From the sequence record JX560968: a DNA stretch of 64,000 nt, one strand, 5' to 3'. The notes beneath the pieces were generated by a model. It searched no databases. It had not been told where the DNA came from and saw only the letters and a program-made list of their open reading frames with translations. This DNA is from Escherichia phage EC6. Every line of letters begins with the position of its first letter. Positions within the stretch are counted from its first letter, which is position 1. The translations under genes and the position numbers were made by a program. This document shows, piece after piece, positions 6,656 through 60,858 of this stretch.

Positions 6656-12054
<5,399 letters not shown>

Positions 12055-13526: not shown

Positions 13527-14381
13527 ATGTTTGAAAAGATTGATAGTGTTTATTACAAAACACTTGATGAACGAACTGTAACACAGTTTAAAGATAAGTT
13601 TATCTACACAAGCATCTTGAAAGCAATCACTGATGAGTTACAAACACTAGAGGATGTTTGCTGGCAGATGCACACAGAGAGAAATATCAGGACATCAGTA
13701 GGTCAACAACTTGATAATATTGGCTCACTGATTAAAGTTCCTAGACCTTTAGGTGCTGATGATGAAACATATAGAGCTATGCTTTATATCCAAATCTTCC
13801 TAAGACGCTCTGACACTACTCCAACATTCTTGCAAAAAGCAATTATGACACTGTATGGTGCAACTTTCTCTCAGATTTTTGAGCATATTACCCCTAAGAC
13901 TGGGGGTATCGTTATCCGTATCAACACTAGGAAAAGTGTTCTAGATGCTGCATATACACTGTCAAAGATTTCTGCAACAACTACTGGCTCCGCTGTTATC
14001 TTAAGAGATGTTACTTTAAAAGGAACTGCTTGGACTCCTGTAGAGGTTGCTGATTCATCACTTGCTATTGTTGATGATAAAGAGAACTGGTTTGTAACTG
14101 ACGCTAACAGAGGTCTTGTCACAAATAACACTGGTGGCTCTCTGGAGTCCAACATAGTAGGGAGCCTTGCAGATGCTGGTGTTATTGATGGTTACTTTAA
14201 GGTTGACAGAACAGCAAACTCACAGAGTGATGATTATATGACTGTAGATAGGTCTAATAACAGTGGATATTTCATCGTTGGTAAAGAAGCTATCGCAGGT
14301 GGTGCATACGGAATCATGGCTGAGGTTGCACAAATTGTCAAAGGCAGAAAAGATAAATCACAACAAGAAGGAAATTCTTAA
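13527..14381 (+). CDS. baseplate/tail fiber attachment protein (putative)
   Basis: 284-aa ORF between J-like and fiber genes. Confidence 0.3.
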
Positions 14382-14683
14382 TGGCAGTTTTAAATTGGTC
14401 TACAAATGAAGTAGATACTGATGGTAATCAGTTAAAAGTTTTACCACCACCGGAAATTCAAGAGACAGGTCTTTTAAAGGGTGAGCCTATGGGTAGACAG
14501 TGGTTCAACTATATTATCAACTACCTGCTGAATAAAGTAAACGGCACTGTCGGTGAAGTTCGCTCATATGCAACTGAGCAACCAGATTTAGTGGCTAATG
14601 GCTGGAATCTGATTAAGTCTGAGACAGGGACTGCATCAACAAGTACAAGAAACCTTTACACATATGAATATGTAGGAGCTTAA
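14381..14683 (+). CDS. hypothetical tail protein
   Basis: 100-aa ORF with overlapping start. Confidence 0.25.
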
Positions 14684-14685
14684 TA

Positions 14686-15861
14686 ATGGCAGTAGGTGAA
14701 ATTCAAATTAGTGCCTTGCCACAAGCGGCCTTACCAGTTGATTTAAGTGATATCTTCCACCTTAAGCAAGGTGTTGAAGATAAAAGATGTACGCTTGAAC
14801 AGTTGTTAGCACCTCACGCATCTCTGAGGAATAACCCTCATGGTGTAACTAAATCACAAGTTGGTCTTGATAATGTTATTAACTCTCTTCAATTAGTTGC
14901 AGCTAATAACTTATCAGACATTGTGAATGTTGCTGAGGCAAGAGCAAATCTACAAATTATGTCGTCAGAGGAAGTGAATAACTTAATTCAGCAACATATT
15001 GACGACAAAAGTAACCCACACAATACAACGAAAGCACAGGTTGGTTTAAGTAATGTTCAGAACTGGACAACATCTAATCTGTACAATGAAGATGCTGATA
15101 AGTATGCTACCGCGAGAGCAGTGAATAATTTATACAAAGCTATCCAAACATCATATCCAGTAGGGACTATTCATCTATCTGTTAACTCTGCTAACCCGTC
15201 CACTTACTTGCTTTGTGGAGGTACTTGGGAGTTAGTTTCTAAAGGTAGGGCGCTTGTTGGTTATGATACAGAAGCTAGACCTGTTGGTTCAACGTTCGGT
15301 TCTCAGACTGTAGCATTAACAAATAATAATTTACCAGCACACACCCACTCTATCTATTTAACAGGTGGTGGTCATACACACTCTGCAAGTGTATCTATCT
15401 CTAGTTTTGATTATGGTTCAAAGAGTACATCAACTTTTGACTACGGTACGAAGGCAACTAACAGTGCTGGTGCTCACACCCACACATTTAGTGGAACGAC
15501 AAGTAATGAGGGTAACCACAACCATAGAGTACCTCTGAGGGGTAATGATAGAAGTGGGTTAAATGCTATTACCGCATCTGCTGATGCTGGGGTTGGTAAT
15601 GCTTCGTATACTGATTTAGCTGGTGCTCACACCCATAGCTTCTCAGGTACAACTGCATCATCTGGTGCTCATAGTCATACTGTTGCAATTGGTGCTCACA
15701 GCCACACTGTTAATATTGGTTCACACAGTCATACGGGCACTGTTACTGTTTCTAGCTCTGAGCATACACACTCAGGGACATCTGGTTCTGTTGGTGGTGG
15801 TCAAGCTTTCAGTGTTGAGCAGCCATCTTTTGTAGTATATGTGTGGCAGAGAACAGCTTAA
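14686..15861 (+). CDS. tail fiber protein with His-x-His-rich C-terminal tip
   Basis: Repeated NPH(G/N)xTK(S/A)QVGL motifs; C-terminal AHTHSFSGTT, AHSHTVAIGAHSHTVNIGSHSHTG repeats (HxH boxes as in metal-binding fiber tips); ends ...AFSVEQPSFVVYVWQRTA. Confidence 0.5.
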   Translation: MAVGEIQISALPQAALPVDLSDIFHLKQGVEDKRCTLEQLLAPHASLRNNPHGVTKSQVGLDNVINSLQLVAANNLSDIVNVAEARANLQIMSSEEVNNLIQQHIDDKSNPHNTTKAQVGLSNVQNWTTSNLYNEDADKYATARAVNNLYKAIQTSYPVGTIHLSVNSANPSTYLLCGGTWELVSKGRALVGYDTEARPVGSTFGSQTVALTNNNLPAHTHSIYLTGGGHTHSASVSISSFDYGSKSTSTFDYGTKATNSAGAHTHTFSGTTSNEGNHNHRVPLRGNDRSGLNAITASADAGVGNASYTDLAGAHTHSFSGTTASSGAHSHTVAIGAHSHTVNIGSHSHTGTVTVSSSEHTHSGTSGSVGGGQAFSVEQPSFVVYVWQRTA

Positions 15862-15870
15862 TTTCTTTAC

Positions 15871-15893
15871 AGGGGCTTTATAGCCCCTTTTAA
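15871..15893 (+). terminator. rho-independent terminator
   Basis: AGGGGCTTTATAGCCCCTTTT hairpin plus T-tract. Confidence 0.55.
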
Positions 15894-15907
15894 GAGGAAA
15901 ATTTATA

Positions 15908-17533
15908 ATGGCAGATTACAAATTGAGTCAATTAAACTCAATCGACACAATTCGTTCAGAAGACCTATTGCACATCAGAGTTAAGAAAAGACCTGAAATG
16001 TTGGGTGACGAAGACCGTAGAATGACCTATCAAGACTTCTTAGCTTCTTTCAAACTAGAAAGGTTTGTTCAGATTGCTGGGAGCACTATGACGGGGGATT
16101 TAGGTATTGTCAAGTTACTTTACGGTGGTAAGGTAGTATTTGACCCTACAGATTCTTCTGAGATTACTCTTGGGGATATTTTAAAGACTTTTAAAATCAA
16201 CTCAAATGGGCTTAAACTCACTATTGCAGATGCCACAAGGTCAGCAACTGTTTATCATACTTTGAATAAACCAAGTCCTAATGAACTTGGCATGAGAACT
16301 AATGAAGAGAATGATGCAAGATATTCAAGGCTTGCTGTTACAAATAACTTCAGTATTAGGCAAGCAATTGTAACTGATGGTGAGCAGTTAACTCTTAAGA
16401 AGGCAACCAATACAGGTGCTTCATATATTCAAGGTAGAGATGCTAATAACCAGCAAACTTGGTATGTTGGACAGGGAAATGCAAACAGTACTAATGTTTA
16501 TTTGTACAATCATGCTACTGGTGCAATGTTAACCCTTGATGCAACAGCAGCATTTAACAAGTCACTTAGAATCGTTGGTCAAGTTCAACCTTCGGATTTC
16601 TCTAACTTAGATGCTAGATACTTCACTCAGACAGTCGCTAATCAGAGATTTGCACAGTTAGCTGGCAATAATACTTTTACAGGTGCTAATACATTTAATA
16701 ACTATATCAGTGTGAACTCTAATGCTGCTGCTATCGTGCTAAAAAATAAGTCTGCTAATGAGTCTTTGTACATCCTAGCAAAAGATGTTGAAAACAATAA
16801 TCTGTGGTTTATTGGTAAAGGTAGTGCAAATGACAATATCACATTTTATGATTACAAGGGCAATACTTCTATTGTATTAAACTCGTCTGGTGCTGCATTC
16901 AGCAAGACTGTAAAAATCACTGGTCAAGTCCAACCTTCAGATTGGACTAACATTGACTCTAGATATATTCCGGCAGCTACTTTGAGCAATCTTGCTAAAA
17001 TTAATGTAGCTAACACATTTACCTCCCAGCAAATTATCCAAGCAAATGGTGAAGCTATTAGGCTAAAAAACTCTTCTGAGAACTCACCATTGTATATCAG
17101 AGCACAGGACAACACTGGTGCTTATAGGTGGTATGTAGGTAATGGCTCGGGGGGTGATGATGTCACCATCCGCAATCACAAGACAGATTGTGAGGTTATC
17201 CTATCTAGTGTCGTTGCTATTAATAAAACATTAAGCATCACTGGTCAAGTTAAACCCTCAGATTTCTCTAACTTAGATGCTAGATATTACACGCAATCTA
17301 CCGCAAACTCTAGGTATATGCTTGCTTACTCTTCTGGCAGTGGTACAGAGGTGGGTGAGAGTGATGGTATTGTTTGGAATGCTAAAACTGGTCTGTATAA
17401 TGTGTATGATAAATCTGGTGGCGCAACACAGCTAGTCTACCATATGTATCAGGGTGCAAGTTCTACACCATCTGCACAGTTTAAGTTTATCTACAGGAAT
17501 GGTGGTAGTTTTTTACAGGACAGCACGAGATAG
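15908..17533 (+). CDS. tail fiber protein with three internal ~110-aa repeats
   Basis: Each repeat ends ITGQV(Q/K)PSD(F/W)(S/T)N(L/I)D(A/S)RY; near-identical DNA copies at 16576-16620 and 17243-17287. Confidence 0.55.
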   Translation: MADYKLSQLNSIDTIRSEDLLHIRVKKRPEMLGDEDRRMTYQDFLASFKLERFVQIAGSTMTGDLGIVKLLYGGKVVFDPTDSSEITLGDILKTFKINSNGLKLTIADATRSATVYHTLNKPSPNELGMRTNEENDARYSRLAVTNNFSIRQAIVTDGEQLTLKKATNTGASYIQGRDANNQQTWYVGQGNANSTNVYLYNHATGAMLTLDATAAFNKSLRIVGQVQPSDFSNLDARYFTQTVANQRFAQLAGNNTFTGANTFNNYISVNSNAAAIVLKNKSANESLYILAKDVENNNLWFIGKGSANDNITFYDYKGNTSIVLNSSGAAFSKTVKITGQVQPSDWTNIDSRYIPAATLSNLAKINVANTFTSQQIIQANGEAIRLKNSSENSPLYIRAQDNTGAYRWYVGNGSGGDDVTIRNHKTDCEVILSSVVAINKTLSITGQVKPSDFSNLDARYYTQSTANSRYMLAYSSGSGTEVGESDGIVWNAKTGLYNVYDKSGGATQLVYHMYQGASSTPSAQFKFIYRNGGSFLQDSTR

Positions 17534-18278
17534 GTATGGTTTTGAGCAGGCATGGGCTAAAATCTATACAGACCAAGATAAACCAACCCCTTCAGAGATT
17601 GGTGCATACACTAAAGCTGAAACTGACCAGAAGATTGCAGAAGCAATCAGTGACTCTACAGACTTGAATAAAATCTATCCAGTAGGTATTGTAACGTGGT
17701 TTAACAGTAATGTTAACCCTAATACAGCACTTCCTGGTCTAACTTGGACGTACCTGAATAATGGTGTTGGTAGAACTATCAGAATTGCAGCAGCAAATGG
17801 TTCAGATGTTGCTACAACTGGTGGTTCAGACTCTGTAACGTTATCTGTTGGTAACTTACCTTCACATACGCATAGCTTCTCTGCTACCACTTCATCATTT
17901 GATTATGGTACTAAGACTTCTAGTACAACTGGTAACCATAACCATAACAGAGGTACTATGGAAATCTCAGGTGCATTTGGTTGGTTCAGAAGTGACAATA
18001 GTTCATTCTACACTGCGAGTGGAGCATTCGTGATGGGGAGCAGTCAGGCTTCGCATGGCTTCACAGGCTCTAACTTCACTTATGGTGCTCCTGTTGATTT
18101 CCACGCGTCAAGAACTTGGACAGGTGCAACCAACACAACAGGTAACCATAGCCATACTGTAGGTATTGGTGCTCACAGCCACACAGTTAGTGGTAACACA
18201 GGTGGTACTGGTTCTGGTTCAGCATTTAGTGTTACTAACCAGTTCTACAAGTTAATGGCTTGGGTAAGAACTGCTTAA
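17454..18278 (+). CDS. tail fiber C-terminal tip domain (separate ORF, or 3' part of 15908 gene after a +1 frame change at T6 run 17509-17514)
   Basis: HxH boxes (SHTHSFSATT, NHNHNRGT, NHSHTVGIGAHSHTVSG) and C-terminus ...AFSVTNQFYKLMAWVRTA paralogous to tip of 14686..15861; no convincing own RBS/start. Confidence 0.45.
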   Translation: MQVLHHLHSLSLSTGMVVVFYRTARDRYGFEQAWAKIYTDQDKPTPSEIGAYTKAETDQKIAEAISDSTDLNKIYPVGIVTWFNSNVNPNTALPGLTWTYLNNGVGRTIRIAAANGSDVATTGGSDSVTLSVGNLPSHTHSFSATTSSFDYGTKTSSTTGNHNHNRGTMEISGAFGWFRSDNSSFYTASGAFVMGSSQASHGFTGSNFTYGAPVDFHASRTWTGATNTTGNHSHTVGIGAHSHTVSGNTGGTGSGSAFSVTNQFYKLMAWVRTA

Positions 18279-18357: not shown

Positions 18358-18555
18358 ATGCCTACAATCCTAGCAATTCTTCTAAAAAATCTAGGTAGCT
18401 TCTTCTGGAAACTCATTTTATCCCTTCTAAGTGAATACATGATTGAGAAAGTGTTCTTTAGACTTGCAAGATACCTTGCGAGTAAAACAGACACACCTAT
18501 TGATGATGAGTTCGTAGATAACTTAGAAAAAGCTTTTAAGGGGGAGAATAAATGA
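18358..18555 (+). CDS. small hydrophobic protein (possible holin-class or fiber-associated)
   Basis: 65 aa, hydrophobic N-terminus, charged C-terminus. Confidence 0.25.
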   Translation: MPTILAILLKNLGSFFWKLILSLLSEYMIEKVFFRLARYLASKTDTPIDDEFVDNLEKAFKGENK

Positions 18556-18923
18556 AGTGGCTAGAGGAAGCTTTTAAAAATAATATTGGTGCAATTGTAG
18601 TTGGTATTTTTAGTGTTATTGGGATGTATACCACCATGCAAGTTTCGGATGGTAAACAAGAAGTGTCTATCACAACAAAGTTACAGCAGTTAGATAATTA
18701 TTCCAAAAGTAATTATTCAGCTATTCGTGATTTACAGTCTGATATGAGGCTGCTTCAGCTAGGGATGGAGAACCAGAAAGTCCAGTTAGAGAATGTTAAG
18801 GGTGAGAACGCAAAACTTACTAAGACTCTTGATAAATTCTCTGATAGTGTAAACAATCTGGCTCAATCAGTATCAGCCCTCCAAGCTATTACTGAAAAGA
18901 ACACAAAGAATACTGAAAAGTAA
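18552..18923 (+). CDS. membrane-anchored coiled-coil protein
   Basis: 123 aa, one N-terminal TM segment (IGAIVVGIFSVIGMY) then coiled coil. Confidence 0.25.
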   Translation: MKWLEEAFKNNIGAIVVGIFSVIGMYTTMQVSDGKQEVSITTKLQQLDNYSKSNYSAIRDLQSDMRLLQLGMENQKVQLENVKGENAKLTKTLDKFSDSVNNLAQSVSALQAITEKNTKNTEK

Positions 18924-25443: not shown

Positions 25444-26000
25444 TTAGTGTACTTCAAGCCAGCTTTTACCAACCTTACCAGTACCTGTAACAAGCGTTTC
25501 TTTCTTAAGACCTAAGTTTTTAGAAGCTTGCCCATAATACCAGTCAGTAACTGCTTTCACTTCTGCCGTCATACTTTCTGGACATTCCCAACTCGTCTCG
25601 TCGTGATAGGAGCACAATAAACGAGCACCTATAGCTGGTTTGCGACCGTTCAACTTCATCAAACCTTCGTCAATCATACGACGGCAAGCAAGGTTAATTG
25701 CTTCATTCTGAACCTGCGCCTCACTACCCATTAGGGTATAGTTTAATAGTTTATGCGGTGATTTACACCATAACCACGCCCCAGCGACCTGAATGTACCC
25801 ACCCTTAGCGATTGCAGCACTCTTGCCGAAAACCTCTTCTAATGCCTTCTTAGTGGCCTTAAAATCGGCTTCTAAGTTATCAAGTAGTTTCTTAATCTTT
25901 GGTAGACGCATATAGTAGGTCTGCTTAGTTAATGCACCTTCCTCTGTAGAAGCTGCCTTAATGGTCTTGGCAAACTTCTCATCACCTGCACCGAACAATA
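25444..26000 (-). CDS. family A DNA polymerase, exon 2 (C-terminal part incl. motif C)
   Basis: Begins ..LFGAGDEKFAKTIKA (second half of Pol A motif B, cf. T7 ...YGAGDEK) and contains LLCSYHDETSWECP (motif C HDE); track ORF starts at TTG. Confidence 0.7.
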
Positions 26001-26805
26001 CATCTGGTCAATACACTCGCAAGGTGTACCAGTTCTCTTATGAACTTCTCCGCATTTCTACGGAGTGTCGGACTATATCACGCAGTAGTAATACTACCGT
26101 TGCACTTGGGAATGGTCATTAGCTTACCACCCTACTCTACTCAGTTCATACATTAAGTATGCTTTTCGATAGTCTCTGAACGTTTCTCTGTTAGGAACTC
26201 TAAAATACTATTATTTACTAAGGTATGCAATTGCTCTCTTCATGTTCTCTATACTATCTGAGAACAGCCCAAGACCTCTGTTACAGTTGTGACACAGCAT
26301 ACCTCTTACCTGTCCTGTTTTGTGGTCATGGTCAACAACCAGCTTGGCTTTATGTCTTGAACCATCCATGATAAAACCTTCACCACCGCAGATTTGACAC
26401 TTGTGACCACACTTACTTAGTAACTCTTCGACCTCTTCTCTTTCTAAGCCGTAAGTCCTTAAGTAATAGTTCTTTACCCTTCCCTTTTCTCCACAAGCAG
26501 AACTGCAATACGTCTGTCTTGCTGTTCTAGGTGTAAACTGGTTATTGCAGCTTGGACATATTTTCTCTATGACACGACTTGCTGCTCTTCTGTCTACTTC
26601 AAGAACGCAGTTTCTACAACGTTTTTGATTGTACTGATATGGCTTAAACTCTTCGCCACATCTGGAACAAACTCTTTCTTTATAACCTGCCATTGTCTCT
26701 CTCCCATTTCTACTATAGGAGTCCTAACAGAGACTTCGCTGCTGATTACCATATCTTTACAGACTTAGGCTTCCAGCAATTCACAACGTTTTACATGCGC
26801 CACTG
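26001..26805 (-). mobile_element. group I intron (about 805 nt) in DNA polymerase gene, carrying an HNH homing endonuclease ORF
   Basis: Exon 1 ends ...AUCUAUGCGU; intron starts CAGUG-GCGCAU (P1: exon AUGCGU pairs with GCGCAU, U-G at splice site); intron ends ...GACCAGAUG; 3' part has GACUAUCG, GUAGGGU, GAUAUAGUCC elements like T4 td-type introns; joined exons restore ...KAKNGIYA-LLFGAGDEK. Confidence 0.6.
26211..26693 (-). CDS. HNH homing endonuclease (endonuclease VII-like) inside the intron
   Basis: Cys-rich zinc-binding N-terminus and HNH core LVVDHDHKTGQVRGMLCHNCNRGLG. Confidence 0.7.
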   Translation of the reverse strand: MAGYKERVCSRCGEEFKPYQYNQKRCRNCVLEVDRRAASRVIEKICPSCNNQFTPRTARQTYCSSACGEKGRVKNYYLRTYGLEREEVEELLSKCGHKCQICGGEGFIMDGSRHKAKLVVDHDHKTGQVRGMLCHNCNRGLGLFSDSIENMKRAIAYLSK

Positions 26806-28948
26806 ACGCATAGATACCATTCTTAGCCTTCTTACGGCCTTTAGTTATCTCGTGAAGAAGTTCTTCATCCTGAGTTTCTCTACAACGAATAATGTCATCC
26901 TCTTTGTTCAATGCAAAGTAGATGCTGTTAAGCGTATGTGCATCAGTACCTGTATACACCTCATATAAGTCATTATCCATATCGTAACGACAATACTTGT
27001 CAGTCTCTGGATTGAGGTACTTGTCAAGATGTTTGCAGTAGTACCGTCCATCATCCTGTTTAGTGAACTCGACAAACTCTTTACCTTCAGTTACTGCTTT
27101 AGTGAACTCTTTATCACCCATAAAGTTACACAGTAAAACAAGCTGTGCAGAGTTCTGGTCAACTGAAACGATGTTAGTCCCTTCCTCACAAATCCACACC
27201 TCCCTCATAGGTGCTCCATAGACAGCAGCACCAGATGGTACGTTTACAATACCATACTGCGTCATACGTCCAGTTGAAGTACCAAACACCATTGCACCAG
27301 CACTAAGGCGACCATCTGGACGAATCTGGTTCAACCAACCTTTTTCATCATCCTTTGAGTTCTCAATAGTTCTGCGTCGGTGCATCAAAGTATAGTACTT
27401 AGCAATCTTCTGTCCAAGTTCACCTTCAATCGTATCATAAGATGATTCAGTAAGTTTTGGTGAAGTACGGATTAAGCAAGGCTCAAGCAAATCTGTGTAC
27501 TTCTTCACAGACCAGTTATGCTCAATGTACTGTACACCTTCATGTTCAACATAACTCAAACCACACCGCTCAACCATTTCCTGCCACTTAGGATGCTTTG
27601 TAATCATCTTTTTATTGTCTTTGAAACGACAAACTTTGACAGGGTGACCATCTGAGTCTTTCTTGTAGTTCCAGTCATCTGGAATCCAACCAACTGATTT
27701 CAAGTAGTCTTTAACAACTGCTACCTGAGTCATACGAGAAACTTCAAACTCAATTGGTGTATATGGTGCATCAATCAAACCTGTGTAGCGACTTGACTCA
27801 AGTTCAAAGTGGTTAACAACGTGGCTGTTATAGTACTTCACAGTTTTGACTGTTTTTACTGGCTTCCAGTCTTTGCATTTCTTACCAATCTTTGCATTCA
27901 ACTCATTGCAAATTGCACGAGCATCCTTCATTGCTACAAAGCCTTCCTTGTACTCTTCACCAGTTACAGAGTTGGTTGGTGTATAGCAATTTCTCTTTTC
28001 AATGTTAAAAATCTTTGTAGTTGGCTTACCAAATGGCTTGATTTCGTATGTCTGCATCTCACCGTTACGTACCTGCTGACGATACTTTGTCTTAGGATAC
28101 TTGGTAATCCTCTTCAGTCCATCTGCATGACCAAATGTTTCAACATACTCATTCCAAGCTTTTGCAAACTCTTCTCCAGTGACTTTACCTTTGGTCTTAA
28201 TAGTTGGAGGAAGATGTGGTTCAACCTCTGAAGCAAGCTCATTAGTCAACTTGTCAAGTTCCTTTACATGGAACTCCATAAGCTCTTTATCAGCTTTCCA
28301 ACCATTGATAGCTTGTTGACTCATCCAGAAAGATGTTTCTTTAGCTCGCATGTAAGTTTCATAAGTGTCTATACCACACTTCTTAAGCTTGAGATACTCG
28401 TTATCAAGTGCCCGTTTAGTTTTGGCGTTAATACGGATATCTTCTACAACACGAGTGAAGATTTCTGCATTCCACACACCCCAATGTTCAATCTCTGGTT
28501 TACGAACACCAACACGAGCACCCCATGCAGCCAAACCATGAGCACCTTTATAACCCTTTGGAGTTGGTCTATCCATCCACTGAACACGAGACTGGATAAG
28601 AGAATCCTGAAAGAAATTACTCCACGGTTTACACTTTGGATTATCAAAGTTCCATAAATCAGGTGCAATGTGATTGAAAACCCACCAGTCATAACCGAGA
28701 CCGTTGTGGATGCAAAGACGTTTTGCCTTTAACGCAAACTCAATACCTTCACGTAAGCCACCCTTGATGTACTTGGTATACTTGTGACCGAGGATAGGCT
28801 CATCTGTAAAGACCCATACAGGTGGCTCTTCATCATCAGATTTATAGTCTGCGAAAGCCATTACGTGCACTTTAGTGAACTCAAGGAGTAAACCATCAGT
28901 TTCTGTATCACCAACTAAATGTAAGTTTTTAAAATCTACGTTTTCCAT
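26806..28948 (-). CDS. family A DNA polymerase, exon 1 (3'-5' exonuclease and N-terminal polymerase domains)
   Basis: Exo motif LVGDTETDGL (cf. Pol I DTETDSL); ends ...GRKKAKNGIYA (first half of motif B); likely start is ATG at 28948 (GAGGGAG RBS) rather than track start 28978. Confidence 0.75.
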
Positions 28949-28978
28949 TTTTACTCCCTCTAAAATCATTAACCTCAT

Positions 28979-29629: not shown

Positions 29630-29893
29630 ATGAATATCGATGTAGAAAAGATGCTTGAAGAGAAAGGTGTTGATGAAGCATTCTTAATCAATGCCGTAGA
29701 AAGCATGGCTATGATTCTTCGTGGTAATAACTACACAGAACAGTTTATGCCTGCAAGCTATAACTTGCCTGAAGACAAGTCTGATAACGGTGCTTTTGCA
29801 GAACAGGTTAATATGATGTTGACAGACACTACACTTGCTCTGGCATCTATTGCGGTTGGTGTTGATGCACTTGCTGAGTTCAGTTTTTTATGA
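29630..29893 (+). CDS. hypothetical protein
   Basis: 87-aa ORF. Confidence 0.3.
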   Translation: MNIDVEKMLEEKGVDEAFLINAVESMAMILRGNNYTEQFMPASYNLPEDKSDNGAFAEQVNMMLTDTTLALASIAVGVDALAEFSFL

Positions 29894-29894
29894 A

Positions 29895-30440
29895 ATGCAA
29901 AAGAATGACTATATCAGGATGTCAGACGAAGATAAGGAACTGTTGCTGACTAAGGACACTGATTTCATTATTGATACACTTATCTCATCAACAAGTGCTG
30001 TTATGGCTGTTCTTGAGAAGCGTATGGAAGAGAAACTTTCACGATATGAAAAACTTGATTGGGGCGTAGAAGAATTAAACCCACGAATCAAAGAGATTAT
30101 CCAGCAAACTAAAGAGTCTTTGGAAGAAGCTGTTGAAAATGACTCTGTAGCTGACATTGAACCACTTCAGGTGAAAGTTGCACTGATGATTCCAGCTATC
30201 TCTACGATGATGAATATCGTTGCACTAATCCAACTGTCACAGATGATGGGTGTGAGTATTGAGTTCATTGAGGAAATGACTGGTGGCGTTAGTATGCAAG
30301 CAATCAATGATGTTTTGGTGAACATTGGTGCTTCAATCATTGAAGAGAAACTACGCATTAACTTCGGTGATGATTTTGTGAAGCAAATCTCAGCTATGGC
30401 TGAAAAGAGTCTGCTGAGCAACTGCACTAAGTCTTTATAA
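29895..30440 (+). CDS. hypothetical protein
   Basis: ATG at 29895 overlaps upstream stop (ATGA-type coupling); track ORF 29835 starts further upstream. Confidence 0.3.
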   Translation: MQKNDYIRMSDEDKELLLTKDTDFIIDTLISSTSAVMAVLEKRMEEKLSRYEKLDWGVEELNPRIKEIIQQTKESLEEAVENDSVADIEPLQVKVALMIPAISTMMNIVALIQLSQMMGVSIEFIEEMTGGVSMQAINDVLVNIGASIIEEKLRINFGDDFVKQISAMAEKSLLSNCTKSL

Positions 30441-34815: not shown

Positions 34816-35863
34816 ATGGAGAAGTACACATTAAAAAAACCTTCCCGATTCAGTTACACATGTTTTTATCGACTCTGACAGTATTGCCTATAAAGGGGCT
34901 TGTGTAGTTGAGAAAGCAAAATATAAATACGTCAATAAACTCACAGCAGAAGAGTCTGAACCATTTGATAATGCAAAAGATGCTGCAAGATGGTTAGCAG
35001 ACCAGAGAATCCTTGTGGAAGAGCTTGGCCTAGCATTTGATGAAGATGAATGGGAAAGACAGACTTGGAAAGAAGCTAAGAGTGAAAAAGAAGCTATCAT
35101 GGCTACTCAACAGGTGCTTCAGGAATGGCTTAAGGTTGTTGGTAAAGAAAGAACTTGGGTAGGTTATTTAACAGAGAAAGGTGTGCATAAACATAAAGAC
35201 ATTAAAGGTCTTGAGCACCAATATCAAGGTAACCGCAAAGATGCTGTCACACCAACACACTTAGTTGCTTGTCGTGAATATCTTCTGTCAAGACCAGAGT
35301 TCAAACTAATTCTTGATGGATTTGAAGCTGACTCTATCGTGATTGCTAAAGCTGAAAAGATGGGTAAAAAGGCTGCCTTAATGAGTATTGATAAAGACCT
35401 TCGACAAGCTGAAGGTACTTACTGTATTGATATGACTTATGAAAAGTCGCCTTTGATTTTCATTGCTGATAACAACGTTGGTGAAATTTGGGATTGTCCA
35501 ATAAAATCGACACCAAAAGCTAAGAAGACAGTTGGGGTAGGTTTTAAATTTCTTTGCTATCAAGCCGTGGCTGGTGATAATGCGGATAATTATTTCGGTT
35601 TAAAGGGTGTTGGTAAGGTTACTATAATGAAAGCCCTTGAAGGTAAAACCACTTACAAAGAGTGTCTTGATGCAATTTATGAGCTTTATGCTAAGAAAGA
35701 GTCATACACTTATGTCTCGTGGGATGGTCAAACAATTACCAGAACACCTTTAGAGTTAATGCAGCAACACTTTTTCTTAGCTTATCAGGAAAGAAACAAG
35801 AAAGATGATTTCACTTTTGATAAGTATGGGTGGACACCAAATGTTAACTCAACAAACTCTTAA
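34816..35863 (+). CDS. 5'-3' exonuclease / flap endonuclease (RNase H-like), reading frame interrupted at A7 run 34833-34839
   Basis: ATG 34816 gives MEKYTLKK then stop; +1 frame continues ...VFIDSDSIAYKGAC (FEN N-terminal motif) into track ORF 35015..35863 with H3TH motif AGDNADNYFGLKGVGKVT. Confidence 0.6.
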
Positions 35864-36332
35864 AGAATACCTACACTATGACCCCGAAACAGGGGTCTTT
35901 ACTTGGATTAAGAAGTCTGCTAAGCACACAAAAATTGGTTCTGTTGCAGGTACAAACTTAAAAGGTTACATCCGAATTTACTTGTTTGGTAAAGGGTACT
36001 ATGCGCATTCATTAGCTGTCCTATATATGGATGGTTATCTTCCTGAGTGTGTTGACCACAAGAACCATGTAACTCTAGACAATCGTTGGTTAAATCTGAG
36101 GGCATGTACACTATCAGAGAACCAATGCAATAGGTTGCTTAACAAAAACAATAAATCCGGTGTCAAAGGTGTGTACTACAACAAGAGGTATGGTAAGTGG
36201 TCTACACAGATAACTTTTCAGAAGAGAGTTTACTTCTTCGGCAACTATGACACGATTGAGGAAGCAGCAGAAGTTGTGAATAGAGAACGTCAACGTTTAC
36301 ACAAAGAGTTTGCTAATAAAGGTGATGAATGA
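35841..36332 (+). CDS. free-standing HNH homing endonuclease with AP2 DNA-binding domain
   Basis: HNH core VDHKNHVTLDNRWLNLRACTLSENQCN; AP2-like SGVKGVYYNKRYGKWSTQITFQKRVYFFGNYDTIEEAA. Confidence 0.6.
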   Translation: MLTQQTLKEYLHYDPETGVFTWIKKSAKHTKIGSVAGTNLKGYIRIYLFGKGYYAHSLAVLYMDGYLPECVDHKNHVTLDNRWLNLRACTLSENQCNRLLNKNNKSGVKGVYYNKRYGKWSTQITFQKRVYFFGNYDTIEEAAEVVNRERQRLHKEFANKGDE

Positions 36333-36830
36333 GAAAAATTAAAGGTTTTGGTAATTGCCCTGAGTATGGACATTGGATTTCACTTTGTGGGGAAATTGAC
36401 CCAGCAAAGCATTTTGGTTTTGTCTACCTAGTGTACTGCAAAAAGACTGGGCAGTACTATTTGGGTAAGAAACAGTTTAACAGTGTGACCAAAAGAAAAG
36501 TTGCTGGGAAGACTCGGAAGAAGGTAGTCACTAAGGAGAGTGATTGGATGACTTATGAGACTTCTTCTGAGTATATTAAAAAACGATATTGAGAGCTTTG
36601 GAAAAGAATTTTTTGACTTTTACATTATTCAAACCTACTACACAAAAGGTGGCCTAGTCTATGGTGAAGCAAACCTTCAACATAAATTCGATGTAATGAC
36701 AAAAAGGATTGACTCTAAGCTCAGACTCTTCTACAATGCCAACATTGCAGCAATTAAGTTTATCACTAAAGAAACTTATGAAGATGCTGAAAAAAGAATC
36801 CATAAGGTAATGAAAGCAAATTGTGCTTGA
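36329..36830 (+). CDS. GIY-YIG-like endonuclease, two overlapping ORFs (36329..36592 and 36555..36830) separated by a frame change at A6 run 36578-36583
   Basis: N-terminal GFVYLVYCKKTGQYYLGKK resembles GIY-(10)-YIG motif; second ORF continues in +1 frame. Confidence 0.35.
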
Positions 36831-42616: not shown

Positions 42617-43813
42617 ATGAACAAAGTACAAATTATTAAAAAGAATGGCTCACTTGAAGAACCGGATATCAAAAAAGTTTTAGCAGCAGTCACAAAGTCG
42701 GCTAATAGGGTTGGTTATAAAGAGCTTCCACCAGATGTTACTCAAGCTCTTGAGTCAGCATTTATGAGGATTCTGGTAAAATCTACTAAACAGAATAATT
42801 TGCTAATCTCGGTAAATGATATCCACAGTATTGTTGAGGGTGCTTTGGCAGAAGTCAATCATGAGATTTATGAGTCTTACTCAACATATAGAAATTACCG
42901 TAAAGAGGTTGCTCAAAATTGGGATGAGCTTTACCAAAAGACTAAAGACACACTCTTCTTAGGTGACCGTGAAAACGCTAACTTTGACAGTAGTTTAATT
43001 TCTACAAAAGGTTCAATTATTCGTGGTTACCTGACTAAAGAAATCTTTAAACAGTACCATTTAACACCAGAGGAACTTGAAGCCATTGAAAAAGGGTTTA
43101 TCTATATTCATGATTTAAGAGACCTGATTTTTGGTGGTATCAACTGTTGCCTGTTTGACATTGGTAAAGTGCTGAAAGGTGGCTTTGAAATGTCTGGCAT
43201 TGAATACTGTGAACCAAAGTCTGTACTGTCAGCTTTACAGGTTATTGGTGATGTAGTTCTTTCAGCAACTGCACAGCAATTTGGTGGCTTTACTTTAGCA
43301 GAGATTGATAAGGTACTTGTACCGTATGCTAAGAAGTCTCTACGTTACCATGCTGAAAAAGCAACAGCTTATGGTATTCCTAAAGAACATTACCACAACT
43401 ATGTCATGGAGCAGCTACAGATTGAATTAACTCAAGGTTTTCAGTCTCTTGAAATGAAGCTCAATACCGTACCTTGTAGCCGTGGTGATTTTGCATTCAC
43501 AACTTTAACATTTGGTTTACTTGACCCAGACATGTCTAATGAAGACAACCGATTACAATACATGATTGCAAGTACCCTCCTAGATGTTCGTATGAATGGA
43601 CAAGGTAAGAGCAAGAAGCCTGTTGTATTTCCTAAACTGGTTTATATTTATGACCAGAAGAGACACGATGAGAATATCTGTCAAGGACACCTGTACAGTA
43701 AAGCCATTGAGTGTTGCTCTAAAGCAATGTATCCAGATTTCTTAAGTGTATCTGGTCATGGTGCTGTAGCAGAGGCTTTTGAGCGTTCTGGTAAGGTTAT
43801 TTCACCGATGGGT
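42617..43813 (+). CDS. nrdD: anaerobic ribonucleoside-triphosphate reductase, exon 1
   Basis: N-terminal ATP-cone (IIKKNGSLEEPDIKKV); ORF ends ...ISPMG where intron begins with UAA. Confidence 0.75.
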
Positions 43814-44129
43814 TAACAAGCTCTATAGCTCATCTAAAACGTGCCTAAACAGGGAAACTCTACAGATGTAGACAATCCTGTGCTAAATGATGTATGATGT
43901 AAGAAACTATACAACATAGGAGTCTTACATGCCAAATAACTTCGAATATGAGTTTGAATACATCTAAATGCCGAACGACTAACCGTGATGAATGTAGCGG
44001 TGTAGGGTCAAGCGACTCGAAATGGTACGCTACTTAGAAATAAGTAGAAGATATAGTCTGGACTTACTGGCGACAGTAAGCAGCTTGAATAAAGCGGGGT
44101 AAGCTTAGCGAACTTACCTGAACAACAAG
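43814..44129 (+). mobile_element. ORF-less group I intron (about 316 nt) in nrdD
   Basis: Starts UAACAAGCUC right after exon AUGGGU (P1 with intron GCUCAU at 43828-43833); core resembles T4 td-type introns (CUAAACAGGGAAACUCUACAGAUGUAGACAAUCCUGUGCUAAAU; GUAGGGUCAAGCGACUCGAAA; GAUAUAGUCUGG); ends ...CUGAACAACAAG; exon 2 resumes in frame. Confidence 0.7.
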
Positions 44130-45077
44130 TGTAGAGCATTTTTATCACCATACCATAACGAATATGGCGAAGAGTTTTATGTAGGTCGTGCTAACATCGG
44201 TGCTGTTTCTTTGAACTTACCAATGATTTACCAGTATTCTAAAGAGAATGGTTTAGATTTCTGGAAGGAGCTTGATAAGTACCTAGAGATGATTCGCAGC
44301 TTCCACAAGAAACGCTACGAAATGATTGCTAACATGCCAGCAAGTTCTAACCCTCTGGCATTCACACAAGGTGGTCTGTACAAAGGGACTAAGAAACCTA
44401 CTGACAAGGTTGGTTGGGATATCGTGAAGTCCTTCACAGCTTCTTTTGGGGTTACTGCGCTTGATGAACTATCTGTTCTTGCTGAAGGTAAACGACTTCA
44501 TGAAGTTGGAAGTTCTAGTTTTGCATACGATGTTCTGGCATACATTAACATGAAAACTGAAGAGTTTAAGAATGAAGATGGCTTCCTGTATGCAGTATAT
44601 GGCACTCCAGCAGAGTCATTGTGTGGAACTCAGCTAAAACAGTTCAGAGATATGTTTGGCGTTATCAAAGGCGTTTCTGATAAGGAATATTTTACAAACA
44701 GTTTCCATATGAATGTTGCAGCAGATATCTCACCATTTGAGAAGCAGGACTTAGAAGAGCCATTCTTCCATATCTGTAGAGGCGGCAGAATCCAGTATGT
44801 GAGGGTAGCTAACCCAGAAAACTTACCAGCACTTAAAAGTTGTATTACAAGAGGGATGTTGAAAGGCTTTTATCAGGGACTTAACTTTGACTTAGCAATC
44901 TGCGAACATTGTGGCAACAGGCCAAAGGCTGATGTTGAAGAATGTGAGGTTTGCCATTCACATGACATCTCTGTGATTAACAGAGTGTGTGGATATCTTG
45001 GGTGGACTAAGATTAAAGGTGAATCCCGAATGAATGATGCAAAAATTGCTGAGATTCGTGATAGGGTTTCTATGTAA
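44130..45077 (+). CDS. nrdD: anaerobic ribonucleoside-triphosphate reductase, exon 2
   Basis: Begins CRAFLSPYHNEYGEEFYVGRANIGAVSLNLP; C-terminal zinc ribbon CEHCG...CEVCH and glycyl-radical motif RVCGYLG; spliced product about 714 aa. Confidence 0.75.
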   Translation, partial: CRAFLSPYHNEYGEEFYVGRANIGAVSLNLPMIYQYSKENGLDFWKELDKYLEMIRSFHKKRYEMIANMPASSNPLAFTQGGLYKGTKKPTDKVGWDIVKSFTASFGVTALDELSVLAEGKRLHEVGSSSFAYDVLAYINMKTEEFKNEDGFLYAVYGTPAESLCGTQLKQFRDMFGVIKGVSDKEYFTNSFHMNVAADISPFEKQDLEEPFFHICRGGRIQYVRVANPENLPALKSCITRGMLKGFYQGLNFDLAICEHCGNRPKADVEECEVCHSHDISVINRVCGYLGWTKIKGESRMNDAKIAEIRDRVSM

Positions 45078-45857: not shown

Positions 45858-46342
45858 ATGAATTACATGGAGATTAGACCATTTGACACAGCTAATGGTG
45901 AAGGGGTTCGTGTAAGCCTCTTCGTAGCTGGCTGCAAACATCACTGTGAAGGCTGCTTTAACAGGGAGTCTTGGAAATTTAATGCTGGTAAAGAGTTTAC
46001 TTATGCAAACCTCTATGGCATCATCAAGTTAATGGATGATAATGCTATCAGTGGGCTGTCAATACTTGGTGGGGAGCCTCTGGATGATAGAAACATTCAA
46101 GACGTTACCAATATATGTAAACGTATTAAAACTGTTTACCCAGAAAAATCTATATGGCTTTGGACAGGTTTTCAGTTACACGAAAAATCCACCTCGATGT
46201 GATGAAATATGTTGACGTGGTGATTGATGGTAAGTATGATTCTTCTAAACCAACAGTTAAACCTTATCGTGGTTCTGATAACCAAAACCTCTGGAGAAAA
46301 GAGTATGGATGGCAAGGTGATTGTCAATGGCGAGCAGAATGA
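45858..46342 (+). CDS. nrdG: anaerobic ribonucleotide reductase activating protein (radical SAM), frame interrupted at A5 run 46184-46188
   Basis: N-terminal half has CKHHCEGC (CxxxCxxC) and IWLWTGFQLHE; -1 frame continues KIHLDVMKYVDVVIDGKYD...RGSDNQNLW, matching NrdG C-terminus. Confidence 0.65.
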
Positions 46343-51322: not shown

Positions 51323-53690
51323 ATGCGCATGGTAAACGACCACGCAGAAGTGATTAAGAGTTCAACTTCTTTAGAGACGTCTCAGGCACAGATTACAATG
51401 ACACCTGAAATGTTCAGCCTTTTGAGTTCTGGTGTATATACCTTTAAAGAAAGGGCAGTCATTCGTGAACTGTCATGTAACGCAGTAGATGCTCAGAAAG
51501 AAGCTGGAAAAGAGAACATCCCTTTCCATGTGCATTTACCTACTCGTTTTGAGCCTTACTTTGAAGTTCGTGATTTTGGAACTGGATTGACTCATGATAA
51601 AGTTATGAGTTTGTATCTAAACTACGGGGCTTCTACGAAGAATGACTCTAATGACTACATTGGTGCAATGGGTATCGGCTCAAAATCTCCATTTGCAATT
51701 GCTCAGTCATTCACAGTATCTAGCTATGTTGATGGTGTTGTTAATAAGTACTCTGTTTATCTTGAGAATGGTATCCCTCAAGTAACTAAGCTGACTACTA
51801 ACCCAATAAAAGAACCTAATGGTTTAGCTGTACGTGTAGCAGTTGCTGACCATCGTATCTCAAAGTTCTTTGAAGAGGCTGGTCACGTATACTCATACTT
51901 TGCTGTAAAACCAGAAAGTAATATCGAGTATGACGATATATTAGCAGATATGAACGTCATTGCCCGTGAAGAAGGTGTTTATGATGCCATGATTCATAAG
52001 CAAAGCTGGCGTTCTAGTGGTAACAGGACAGAGTTTAATGTGGTGATGGGTAATATTGCCTATCCAGTGAACATGGAAGCATTACTTGGTGATGATTTCT
52101 TCAAAGTATTGCCAGAATTTTTCCGTAGGAGCGTAGACCTTGTAAACATCTACATGCCTATTGGTTCAGTTGCTATTGCAGCTTCTCGTGAAGCATTGCA
52201 GATGAATGACACGACAAAAAACTGTTATCATTGAGGCTACTAAAAAGATAACTGAAGCAATTACAAAGGATGTTATCAAGAAAGTTAACAGTCAACCTAC
52301 ACTTATGGATGCTGCACAGGCTTATGCTGAGTTACGTTTGAACTCACGAGAGATGTTTAATGCTGTGTGTCCAAAGCTAGAGTGGGGTGGTGTTAAGCTT
52401 GATTCTCTGGAAGAAGAATTACTAAACATTCGTCGTGGAATTATCTACGCAGAAGACGGCTCAGTTATCTATGAACGTGATGGTAAAGGTAATATTAAGG
52501 TTGATAGGAACGGAAACAATATCCCTAAAGTAGATTATCTTTATAATCCAGTTGCTTATGTTAAGTTCAACTCTTTAGAAAGTAAGATTCGTGCAACAGC
52601 ACTTTCCTACACTCAAGAGGCAAGTATGTTCAATATCTTTGGCGCAATGCGTAAAAGTCAAATTGAACAGTTTTTGTTTGTTATAAACGACCGTCGCAAT
52701 AAAAATGGTACTGAGAAGACTGTAGGACGCAATCAGATTCTGCGTGGTGCATGTCGAGACTATGCCAGTGAGTCTAGTCTGTTTCACAGATACAACGGTA
52801 TCGTCTTTGTATTCTCGACTGAAAAAGAGTTAGACAACCTAATCAATCTGCACAAACTTGATAAAAGCTTGTTAAAGATTGTGAAGATGTCTGATAAGGA
52901 ACATCATTATCAGCGTAAAGAAGCTGTAAGAGGTGTTGTAAAACTTTGGAAAGCTGTTCCAGCAGAAGGTGTAGCTTCATACAAAGAGGTGTCAGAGGAC
53001 TTAGATACGATTGAAGAACCTCAGCTTTACATTAAGGCAATTGGTGACACAGTTGATGGTGAATGTTTTTGCTCATCTCCAGAAGATGTAGCTAAGTCAG
53101 TTGCTAATGTTACAGGTAAGACAGTCTATGTTTTCCGAAAAGCAAATTGGAAAAAGATACCAGAAGATTGGATTGAAGTAGATGAGAAACTCTTGAACGA
53201 CAGCTTAACTGATGTTCACTGGATTAACCATAACAGATATATGACGCGTATCTATATGAATGGTGTCCTTGACCTTACAAGCAGTTGGATTATTGCCAGA
53301 AACTTTACATTCAATAACAGGAAGATTTCTCGTGGTTATTGCTATTCACGGGATACAAACAAAACTATCTTCCTAGAAGGAAATGAAGAGGCTGTAGAGG
53401 CAATGTTCGGTAAAATCCAATACGTTGCTGCACCGTTTGCATACACTTATACTATTAGTAGATTGCAAACTTTGAAAGAATGTCTTGACAACGATACAAA
53501 GCTGTACAAGAAAATCAAGAAAGCTGGTGACCGTATGGTCATTAAGGTGACAAACTACCTTTCAAAAAGAAAACAAGAAAACTTCTTGCTTTCTCATTTA
53601 GATTGGAATAAAGTGTCACCCATCGAAGTGAGTAAGTTCTTGGGCTTTGATGTGAAGTGTGTTCCAGAAGGGACTACAATTTACGATTAA
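51323..53690 (+). CDS. rIIA: rIIA-like protein with GHKL ATPase N-terminal domain; two overlapping ORFs (51323..52234, 52206..53690) joined by a frame change at A6 run 52216-52221
   Basis: Bergerat-fold motifs ELSCNAVDA, RDFGTGL, GAMGIGSKS; combined about 797 aa; followed by rIIB-like gene as in T4. Confidence 0.5.
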
Positions 53691-60240: not shown

Positions 60241-60247
60241 AAAGTAC

Positions 60248-60329
60248 TTTACAAGGGGCTTATAGTTCGATAAAGTAAGCCCCAGATAAAGAGCTTTACC
60301 ACTAAATCCTTAAACTAGGAGATTCAAAA
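60248..60329 (+). promoter_or_regulatory. promoter-hairpin-SD cassette (type II)
   Basis: TTTACA-N17-TAAAGT with GGGGCTTA...TAAGCCCC hairpin spanning spacer and -10; then CCTTAAACTAGGAGATTCAAAAATG. Confidence 0.5.
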
Positions 60330-60842: not shown

Positions 60843-60858
60843 ATTAAGAGGGAACACC

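Follow-up and report, generated by a model that had tools for sequence, protein, structure and literature searches.

The 64,000-nt stretch of sequence record JX560968 (Escherichia phage EC6) analyzed here, referred to below as the window, derives from a Felix O1-like myovirus of the genus Felixounavirus and carries the standard fiber gene pair of this group. We consider it very probable that this is a two-fiber Felix O1-like locus in which the second fiber gene (TF2) is split by a probable error and in which cassettes recombine at conserved islands. As such, it is an ordinary two-gene tail fiber locus of a known kind, for which structures have been described in close relatives. A preliminary description of this DNA had recognized three modular fibers with HxH-rich tips and internal repeats. 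The sequence features that it listed were largely found as described, as were modular fibers, T4 gp37-type HxH tips, and loci that vary among relatives, while the three-gene model and a variable repeat copy number were not upheld. The gene model is thus corrected to two fibers instead of three; the fibers of EC6 fall in a family with structures already characterized, and the current understanding is unchanged.

Two fiber genes of the Felix O1-like type

A search with the fiber locus returned 234 matching records, with names nearly all of Escherichia, Salmonella, Shigella, or Felixounavirus phages, and the best database relative was Escherichia phage PHB11 (95.5% identity). The gene order of the locus (Table 1) was identical in the window, PHB11, Shy, HY02, and Bas63.

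Table 1 Features of the tail fiber locus, with positions in the window
Feature	Position	Strand	Basis or remark
ORF (100 aa) directly upstream of the fibers	14381..14683	+	phrog_4141, full length (E = 8e-61)
TF1, short tail fiber (391 aa)	14686..15861	+	Orthologue of Bas63 gp26 and Sf14 gp52
TF1 needle/head region (aa 219-362)	15340..15771	+	9 HxH motifs
TF2, long tail fiber gene	15908..18278	+	Orthologue of Bas63 gp27 and Sf14 gp53
Shaft repeat 1 (aa 127-241)	16286..16630	+	hmmsearch and Pfam gp37_trimer
Junction motif copy 1 (...GQVQPSDFSNLDARY...)	16554..16629	+	Repeat family D1
Shaft repeat 2 (aa 242-356)	16631..16975	+	Linker insertion of 6 aa, as is typical at position 2
Junction motif copy 2 (...GQVQPSDWTNIDSRY...)	16899..16974	+	Family D1; 67% identity with copy 1
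Shaft repeat 3 (aa 357-463)	16976..17296	+	Core also found at position 1 in other phages
Junction motif copy 3 (...GQVKPSDFSNLDARY...)	17220..17295	+	Family D1; 82% identity with copy 1
gp37_C/Mu tail fiber protein S-like domain (aa 473-577 of repaired TF2)	17324..17639	+	Match to 8JU3; frameshift inside
Extra G (GGTA[G]TTTTTT) splitting TF2	17508..17508	+	Comparison with PHB11 and database records
TF2 receptor-binding tip	17649..18275	+	Homology to the TF1 tip and T4 gp37

In Bas63 (Escherichia phage JohannRWettstein), cryo-EM published in 2025 (Sci Adv) assigned the short tail fiber (STF) to gp26 and the long tail fiber (LTF) to gp27; both end in collar/needle/head tips like that of T4 gp37, with 7 and 6 HxH motifs, respectively, and the LTF contains beta-helix repeat domains (PMC12609058). 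Our recount for the two Bas63 fibers likewise gave 7 and 6 motifs. Fibers gp52 and gp53 of Shigella phage Sf14 measure 391 and 792 aa (PMC11821841), and cryo-EM of both phages has shown the long fiber attached to a baseplate platform and docked, as a trimer, along the sheath (PMC12609058, PMC11821841).

TF1 corresponds to the short fiber of the Bas63 gp26 type in full-length similarity (75% identity; 391 and 382 aa), length class, and gene position, lying between the 100-aa platform gene and the long fiber gene, downstream of the baseplate wedge genes. It also matched phrog_2097 (E = 2e-137), and its ORF was intact in all relatives examined (375 to 402 aa). The platform on the baseplate to which the long fiber of Bas63 belongs is formed by gp25 (PMC12609058). 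Its gene, bas63_0025, has the same 303-nt length and the same place as the ORF directly upstream of the EC6 fibers, which we therefore assign, by position, as the counterpart of gp25. A fiber chaperone gene was sought downstream of the fibers, where the ORFs at 18358-18555 and 18552-18923 matched only PHROG families of unknown function.

EC6 and Bas63 are alike in gene order, sizes, HxH tips (in EC6, of predicted collar/needle/head form), and the repeat domains of the long fiber shaft. They differ in that gp26 has 7 HxH motifs versus 9 in TF1, that the gp27 tip has 6 motifs and an insert of about 35 aa versus 4 motifs and about 70 aa in TF2, that the cassettes of repeats 1 and 3 are of other types, and that TF2 is frameshifted in the window. 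By analogy with these relatives, TF1 and TF2 would each form a homotrimer composed of an N-terminal baseplate-binding part, a shaft, and a T4 gp37-type tip; the TF2 shaft would include three beta-domain repeats of about 110 aa with conserved linker motifs between them. From what has been found in studied relatives, the receptor is presumably lipopolysaccharide (LPS).

A long fiber gene in two reading frames

In the window, TF2 appears as two ORFs (15908-17533 and 17454-18278) that overlap by 80 nt in different frames. The preliminary description had treated these as a separate middle fiber and a second tip, but they are one long fiber gene in two pieces, encoding 789 aa after removal of an extra G at 17508. 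They share the family model phrog_4277 (780 positions), of which the first ORF accounts for 1-537 and the second for 534-780, and a conserved domain spans the junction. The extra G is the sole indel relative to PHB11 over the entire 2,371-nt gene. TF2 is a single coding sequence in PHB11, Shy, HY02, and Bas63, and of the 32 genomes that we compared for repeat number and TF2 intactness, 31 have it as one ORF (gene length, 777 to 849 aa). On the basis of this family coverage, the single-base indel, the relatives, and the domain across the junction, we conclude that TF2 is one gene.

The long fibers of the gp27 type are single proteins of about 780 to 850 aa composed of an N-terminal part, three gp37_trimer repeats, a post-repeat module, a collar, and an HxH tip. 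All of these parts are present and collinear in TF2, with the frame broken at 17508. The repaired protein (...YRNGGIFYRTARD... across the frameshift site) aligned with Bas63 gp27 over its full length, collinearly and across the ORF junction, at 66% identity. Residues 473-577 matched residues 324-427 of Mu tail fiber protein S (8JU3; gp37_C, PF12604; E = 8.5e-24) in an alignment that also runs across the break (YRNGGIFYRTARDRYGFE versus YRNGGIFYRSARDGYGFE), and PF12604 itself is cut, with positions 1-58 on the first ORF and 61-95 on the second. The Mu fiber requires a chaperone and has this domain close to its distal end, whereas in EC6 the domain is internal, between the repeats and the gp37-type tip.

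The extra G has most probably arisen in sequencing or assembly. All 14 database records covering 17380-17640 have one base fewer. Five further conserved genes in the window (a "minor tail protein," an exonuclease, a 165-aa protein, NrdG, and rIIA) are broken by 1-nt indels, at positions 29883, 34840, 36584, 46188, and 52222, all of them at A/T runs, and four of these five indels share one signature, namely, a C added on the 3' side of at least 6 consecutive A's, read on either strand. Five of the six gene-breaking indels lie directly beside A/T runs of at least 6, and in the sixth an A6 run has become A5; positions in or adjoining such runs make up 0.58% of the window. With so many conserved genes broken at A/T runs, four of them by the same kind of indel, a sequencing artifact is the likeliest explanation for 17508 as well. 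The record thus contains several probable homopolymer-associated frameshifts, and its gene calls should be used with caution. The exact 24-nt frameshifted allele had no matches in IMG/VR, GTDB genomes, or JGI metagenomes; these zeros are uninformative because the unshifted PHB11 allele, used as a control, was also absent from IMG/VR and the metagenomes. A look-up for a protein identical to the 541-aa ORF gave no match.

If the frameshift were instead a genuine mutation, the phage would make a tipless long fiber fragment of 541 aa, perhaps accompanied by a tip fragment with its own start, and would infect via the short fiber only; it could then be a laboratory-adapted or host-range variant. The extra base does stand in the given sequence, the G was inserted beside a T6 run whose own length is unchanged, and the public genome L029 likewise has a split TF2. 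Bas63 particles carry 0 to 6 long fibers each (PMC12609058), and a phage without functional long fibers may therefore be viable. We nevertheless regard this reading as unlikely: five other conserved genes in the window are broken at A/T runs (four showing one signature), all relatives lack the insertion, and the break falls within a folded domain conserved with Mu tail fiber protein S. In addition, the downstream part lacks a credible start: the ATG at 17499 directly adjoins an AGGA, and no ribosome-binding site precedes the GTG at 17454.

It is highly improbable that the A6C and GT6 sites are recoding signals, at which transcriptional slippage or +1 ribosomal frameshifting would bring the parts back into frame and so control how much of the long fiber and of the other affected proteins is made. 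The location of the indels, five of six directly beside slippage-prone A/T runs of at least 6 and the sixth turning A6 into A5, would fit such a role, but programmed recoding sites are normally conserved, and a run of 6 is on the short side for slippage to be efficient. The indels are all missing from PHB11 (about 95% identity), in which the genes are intact, and the TF2 insertion occurs in no relative; we rejected programmed recoding on this lack of conservation. The arrangement that remains, of a tip-bearing fiber, a middle fiber of repeats, and an independent second tip docking on it, has next to no likelihood: mechanical ORF calling does yield three ORFs, and some phages, such as T4, assemble fibers from several proteins, but the two TF2 ORFs overlap out of frame while remaining collinear with one protein family model, they are one gene in 31 of 32 relatives, their boundary cuts a conserved domain, and the GTG-initiated downstream ORF has neither a proper start nor a ribosome-binding site, on which grounds an independent third gene was rejected.

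As separate observations on the public records, the split of TF2 in L029 is at another place, and a REP7 "tail fiber protein" of 314 aa suggests that more split annotations exist.

Receptor-binding tips

Both fibers end in HxH-rich tips of shared architecture, as the preliminary description had noted, and the two tips are 34% identical (E = 6e-17). TF1 carries 9 HxH motifs (residues 219, 230, 264, 278, 315, 329, 338, 347, and 360) in its predicted needle, alongside a collar and an N-terminal baseplate-binding part, and it terminates in ...QAFSVEQPSFVVYVWQRTA. The TF2 tip would comprise a collar, a short needle with 4 HxH motifs (aa 653, 677, 747, and 756), a head insert of about 70 aa that separates motif 2 from motif 3, and a C-terminal strand that is conserved and ends in ...SAFSVTNQFYKLMAWVRTA. 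Among relatives, TF1 has 9 or 7 motifs and the TF2 tip has 4, 6, or 7. The tip module is also 43 to 51% identical to prophage fibers of Providencia, Morganella, Erwinia, and Photorhabdus.

By sequence comparison, both tips are homologous to the receptor-binding tip of T4 gp37 (PDB 2XGF), reportedly described by Bartual et al. in 2010. TF1 residues 146-362 matched 2XGF with an E value of 1.9e-27 and with their HxH motifs aligned to those of 2XGF; the TF2 tip matched it with an E value of 5e-4 as a single sequence and of 1.1e-37 with a profile of 52 homologues. Among these 52 homologues (37 to 75% identity), the four histidine pairs of TF2, numbered H119/121, H143/145, H213/215, and H222/224 in a 255-aa fragment, either do not vary or show conservation of at least 90%. 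In both TF1 and TF2, the motifs form two groups that flank a central non-HxH segment, the presumed head. This resembles T4 gp37 and is consistent with an out-and-back topology, in which each chain would run out along the needle, form a small receptor-contacting head, and return to the collar.

The T4 fiber differs in having 7 HxH motifs and in being assembled from gp34 to gp37 rather than from a single protein; the EC6 tip is fused to a different shaft, and no gp38- or gp57A-type chaperone gene was seen beside the EC6 locus. In T4 gp37, the copies of each HxH motif from the three chains together hold one iron ion on the axis of the needle, coordinated octahedrally by the histidines (PMC12609058), and the motifs of both EC6 tips may, by homology, bind iron in the same way.

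An AlphaFold2 monomer of the TF2 tip, based on the 52-sequence alignment, had a mean pLDDT of 59.5 and a pTM of 0.32, with the collar alone being confident, and a Foldseek search of this model against the PDB yielded nothing significant (best, T4 gp10 C-terminal domains; E = 0.26). A poor monomer model is expected for an intertwined trimer, and the four-motif TF2 tip is consequently read, from sequence and profile homology, as a putative needle and head.

Shaft repeats and junction motifs

The TF2 shaft contains three tandem repeats of 115, 115, and 107 aa (DNA spacing, 345 and 321 nt), in agreement with the three repeats of about 110 aa proposed previously. They share 29 to 40% protein identity, and each ends in GQV(Q/K)PSD..N.D.RY. 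Pfam gp37_trimer (PF20744) matched three stretches of TF2 (E = 1e-64; 215 bits versus a cutoff of 21.7), as it did in five relatives, and the core of repeat 2 showed a weak match to the T7 gp17 fiber (4A0T/4A0U; E = 4e-5).

The near-identical DNA copies of about 45 bp reported within the repeats do exist: 16576-16620 and 17242-17286 match at 42 of 45 bases, with a longest exact run of 26 nt. The second copy had been placed one base further on, at 17243-17287, where 12 of 45 bases match. Across relatives, junction copy 1 forms an island of 80 to 98% nucleotide identity between cassettes at 50 to 65%, and a conserved island also lies at junction copy 2 (16928-16987).

Cassette exchange among relatives

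Comparison of the fiber loci for domain swaps, as the preliminary description had proposed, showed that they are far from invariant and strongly mosaic. Repeat cores, post-repeat modules, and tips have been exchanged independently among relatives, and the breakpoints fall within the conserved junction motifs. The shaft repeats comprise at least 34 types of cassette. In some relatives, the post-repeat module is replaced by a different one (15 to 30% identity). The repeat 1 cassette type of EC6 is shared only with five of the compared genomes (L001, L002, L003, L005, and L028; 87 to 97% identity), and position-2 cassettes form a separate pool. In L016 and L022, the cassette at position 1 shares 80 to 93% nucleotide identity with the core of EC6 repeat 3, but the cassette at position 3 of L016 itself shares only 36 to 66%. 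In the phage database, HMD-P10, Tf, and LF82P1 carry the repeat 3 core of EC6 at position 1; PHB11 and LF110P1 carry it at position 3. Cassettes thus swap between positions 1 and 3, and cassette exchange itself is well supported.

Recombination-driven host-range change had been suggested from the repeats. Recombination-driven modularity is borne out by the mosaic cassettes at the junctions, change in repeat copy number is not, as all 32 genomes have three repeats, and no link between shaft-cassette exchange and host range emerged. Copy-number variation was rejected on this count and because the match spans in the best 30 of the 234 records (4,050 to 4,280 nt) do not fit the gain or loss of units of 321 to 345 nt. 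We propose that, over evolutionary time, homologous recombination between phages has diversified the locus. It would act at conserved islands, namely, the N-terminus, the three junction motifs, the collar, and the C-terminus, and would exchange repeat cores, post-repeat module, and tips as cassettes while the repeat number stays at three. Movement between positions 1 and 3 would follow from their nearly identical junctions (42 of 45 nt).

Comparable processes are familiar from other phages: Tetart, Krisch, and colleagues (1998) reportedly found recombination at conserved motifs ("His boxes") in distal fiber genes of T-even phages, and horizontal exchange of fiber modules among P2/Mu/P1-type phages is said to have been described by Haggard-Ljungquist et al. 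and by Sandmeier et al. in 1992. EC6 shares with these the variable segments between short conserved DNA islands and the abrupt switches in similarity. It differs in that its islands are also repeated within one gene, with cassettes at alternative positions 1 and 3.

The shaft repeats might, as a tentative suggestion, form a combinatorial cassette system exchanged at the junctions across Felixounavirus and Mooglevirus with the copy number fixed at three. If the shaft domains bound surface glycans side-on, this would add a second, tip-independent layer of host-range variation, a functional effect on which we can only speculate; as far as we searched the literature, we found no description of such a layer for this phage group. 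The comparison yields a map useful for host-range engineering in Felix O1-like phages: the N-terminus, junctions, collar, and C-terminus are conserved anchors, and the three repeat cores, the post-repeat module, and the needle/head (4, 6, or 7 HxH motifs) can be exchanged as cassettes.

Two fiber genes at the tail-fiber locus

Mechanical calling placed three plus-strand ORFs in the interval 14686-18278, which a preliminary description had taken for three separate fibers. The second and third ORFs share 80 nt, which they read in different frames, and they cover adjoining parts of one PHROG family, phrog_4277 (780 positions; 1 to 537 by the second ORF and 534 to 780 by the third). The locus was 95.5% identical to that of its closest database relative, Escherichia phage PHB11 (a Felixounavirus), and a single CDS of 784 to 847 aa replaces both ORFs in PHB11, Shy, HY02, and Bas63. 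When 15908-18278 was aligned to the PHB11 gene, the sole indel was an extra G at 17508 (GGTA[G]TTTTTT in the window; GGTATTTTTT in PHB11), and all 14 database records covering 17380-17640 had one base fewer than the window. The ORF was uninterrupted in 31 of 32 genomes (31 further relatives and Bas63). These alignments lead us to conclude that the locus contains two genes, not three: a short-fiber gene (TF1) and a long-fiber gene (TF2) that is split by the extra G.

Without this G, TF2 encodes 789 aa that are collinear with Bas63 gp27 (66% identity). Residues 473 to 577 of the repaired protein matched the Mu tail fiber protein S (PDB 8JU3; E = 8.5e-24), and because this alignment crosses the break uninterrupted (YRNGGIFYRTARDRYGFE versus YRNGGIFYRSARDGYGFE), the break falls inside a conserved domain rather than between domains. 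As judged from its upstream sequence, the third ORF lacks a credible start; the GTG at 17454 is without a ribosome-binding site, and the ATG at 17499 is directly adjoined by AGGA.

Features of the fiber locus, genes broken by single-base indels, and other elements of the record
Feature	Position	Strand	Details
First ORF (TF1)	14686-15861	+	391 aa
Second ORF (TF2, upstream part)	15908-17533	+	541 aa
Third ORF (TF2, downstream part)	17454-18278	+	274 aa; GTG start
Peptide across the TF2 break			Predicted for the product of an intact gene, YRNGGIFYRTARD
Conserved DNA islands of TF2	16568-16687, 16928-16987, 17228-17287, 17588-17887, 18188-18278		80 to 98% identity
'Minor tail protein'	29883		Extra G before T6 run; ORFs 29630-29893 and 29835-30440
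Exonuclease	34840		Extra C after A7 run; ORF 35015-35863
165-aa protein	36584		Extra C after A6 run; ORFs 36329-36592 and 36555-36830
NrdG (activase)	46188		A6 shortened to A5; ORFs 45858-46202 and 46154-46342
rIIA	52222		Extra C after A6 run; ORFs 51323-52234 and 52206-53690
Group I intron in nrdD	43756-44080	+	Between ORFs 42617-43816 and 44211-45077
DNA polymerase gene, split	25444-28978	-	26765-28978 and 25444-25998, aa 1 to 724 and 726 to 909 of the PHB11 protein; insert ORF 26211-26693, 160 aa
Direct repeats, one family	61171, 62045, 63271, 63836		~110 nt
Direct repeats, other family	60229, 61541, 62347		~110 nt

Origin of the TF2 frameshift

A comparison of the whole window with PHB11 revealed that, besides TF2, five conserved genes were disrupted by one-base indels at A/T homopolymers. 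Among the six gene-breaking indels, that of TF2 included, five place an additional C 3' of a run of at least six A's on either strand (equivalent to a G 5' of a T run); the same signature thus occurs in four of the five other broken genes. Given that positions in or beside A/T runs of at least 6 make up 0.58% of the window, this pattern is nonrandom, and the indels are probably the result of systematic base-calling error. In flow-based sequencing with the flow order T-A-C-G, signal carry-over would produce a false C behind a long stretch of A's, and the extra C's in the window may have arisen in this way. Possibly, the TF2 frameshift is instead a genuine mutation, a reading consistent with the report that Bas63 particles carry zero to six long fibers (PMC12609058). 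Exact-allele scans were uninformative in this respect, since neither the frameshifted allele nor the unshifted control allele had an exact match in public collections. With a systematic artefact as the probable origin, the gene calls in record JX560968 need caution.

Long-fiber genes that are split, or annotated as split, at other positions were also found in other public Felixounavirus records. In one of the compared relatives (L029; IMGVR_UViG_2974574300_000001, 9380-11723), the gene is split into 453 and 311 aa at a position different from that in the window, and a 314-aa "tail fiber protein" of Escherichia phage REP7 (match P0001) covers the tip alone. Furthermore, a Felixounavirus-type fiber junction sequence (86% over 73 nt) occurs at two places in GU169904.1 (match H99; Staphylococcus phage SA1, 147 kb), which was also among the matches to the whole fiber locus, suggesting a chimeric or contaminated record.

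Identity of the fibers and their tips

This fiber system has been described before, in Bas63, Sf14, and T4. TF1 was 75% identical over its full length to Bas63 gp26, and the two EC6 genes are orthologous to Bas63 gp26 and gp27, which form a 430-Å short fiber and a 630-Å long fiber, respectively, in a 2025 cryo-electron microscopy study (PMC12609058). Sf14 has the same fiber pair, with lengths of 391 and 792 aa (PMC11821841), compared with 391 and 789 aa (repaired) in EC6.

The first ORF contains nine HxH motifs and ends in QAFSVEQPSFVVYVWQRTA, and the third contains four and ends in SAFSVTNQFYKLMAWVRTA; the two tips were 34% identical (E = 6e-17), as expected for the two homologous, HxH-rich tips proposed at the outset. 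Both are homologous to the T4 gp37 tip (2XGF), which was matched by aa 146 to 362 of TF1 (E = 1.9e-27) and by a TF2-tip profile built from 52 homologues (E = 1.1e-37). Across these homologues (37 to 75% identical to the TF2 tip), conservation of all four TF2 motifs was complete or at least 90%. HxH motifs coordinate iron in T4, and the chain of the Bas63 tips turns back on itself at the head (PMC12609058). We counted seven and six motifs in the Bas63 fibers, in agreement with that study. Modeling of the TF2 tip as a monomer with AlphaFold2 gave a poor result (pLDDT, 59.5), for which no fold was matched significantly; the trimeric needle and metal sites are thus predicted from homology. As in Felix O1 relatives, LPS is the expected receptor.

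The collar and HxH tip module of TF2 also shared 43 to 51% identity with several hundred prophage tail-fiber or "baseplate" proteins (matches P0010 to P0120) from Providencia, Morganella, Erwinia, Mixta, Photorhabdus, and Klebsiella, in which it is joined to N-terminal parts of quite another kind (PF12571, PF03406, and PF03335). These matches point to wide horizontal spread of the module.

Mosaicism and cassette exchange

The second ORF contains the three tandem ~110-aa repeats noted previously (115, 115, and 107 aa; 29 to 40% pairwise identity), each closed by GQV(Q/K)PSD..N.D.RY and matching gp37_trimer (Pfam, three domains; E = 1e-64). The reported near-identical 45-bp copies exist (42 of 45 positions; longest exact run, 26 nt), with the second at 17242-17286 and not at 17243-17287, a register in which only 12 of 45 positions match that at 16576-16620.

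Alignment with relatives indicates that TF2 is a mosaic. Its N-terminal 126 aa (88 to 98% identity in closer relatives; 72 to 79% in the most distant) and collar (94 to 100%; 63 to 71%) are conserved; the three repeats, the post-repeat module, and the tip each vary on their own, from ~95% down to 20 to 55% identity. The abrupt similarity switches coincide with the conserved DNA islands, in line with the proposal of modular fibers recombining at repeated junctions. Tip alleles carry nine or seven HxH motifs in TF1 and four, six, or seven in TF2, and in several phages the gp37_C-like module is swapped for another. The locus is thus far from invariant among relatives, but the suggested change in repeat copy number was not borne out: all 32 genomes have three repeats, and the match spans of the 30 locus records listed are incompatible with gain or loss of one unit. 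Overall, the preliminary observation was partly confirmed, and its interpretation was partly supported.

Grouping of 96 repeat cores at 70% identity yielded 34 types, three of which were common to positions 1 and 3; no position-2 core among the 96 shared a type with either position. The repeat-3 core of the window was 80 to 93% identical (nucleotides) to the repeat-1 cores of relatives L016 and L022 (Citrobacter phage Moogle) and only 36 to 66% identical to repeat 3 of L016. Likewise, repeat 3 of relative L014 and repeat 1 of L010 had 90 to 100% identical cores with unrelated flanks. As derived from offsets between locus and cassette matches in database phages, the repeat-3 cassette of the window occupies position 1 in three of them (HMD-P10, Tf, and LF82P1) and position 3 in two (PHB11 and LF110P1). 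This sharing fits the junction DNA at the repeat ends, where identity over 76 nt was 82% for copies 1 and 3 and 67% for copies 1 and 2. The one mildly new point is that shaft cassettes are exchanged between the first and third repeat positions.

Other features of the record

The nrdD gene (anaerobic ribonucleotide reductase) is interrupted by a group I intron (Rfam RF00028; 53.6 bits; E = 9e-11); PHB11 nrdD is uninterrupted (714 aa), and T4 nrdD also contains a group I intron. The DNA polymerase gene is split by a ~770-nt insertion, at which the Rfam search gave no intron match. The insert encodes a protein with an HNH/endonuclease VII-like motif (DHDHKTGQVRGMLCHNCN), probably a homing endonuclease, either free-standing or intron-borne. 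Finally, the short-gene region at 60229-63947 contains two direct-repeat families (73 to 95% identical), also multicopy in PHB11. These may represent regulatory or intergenic elements present in several copies.
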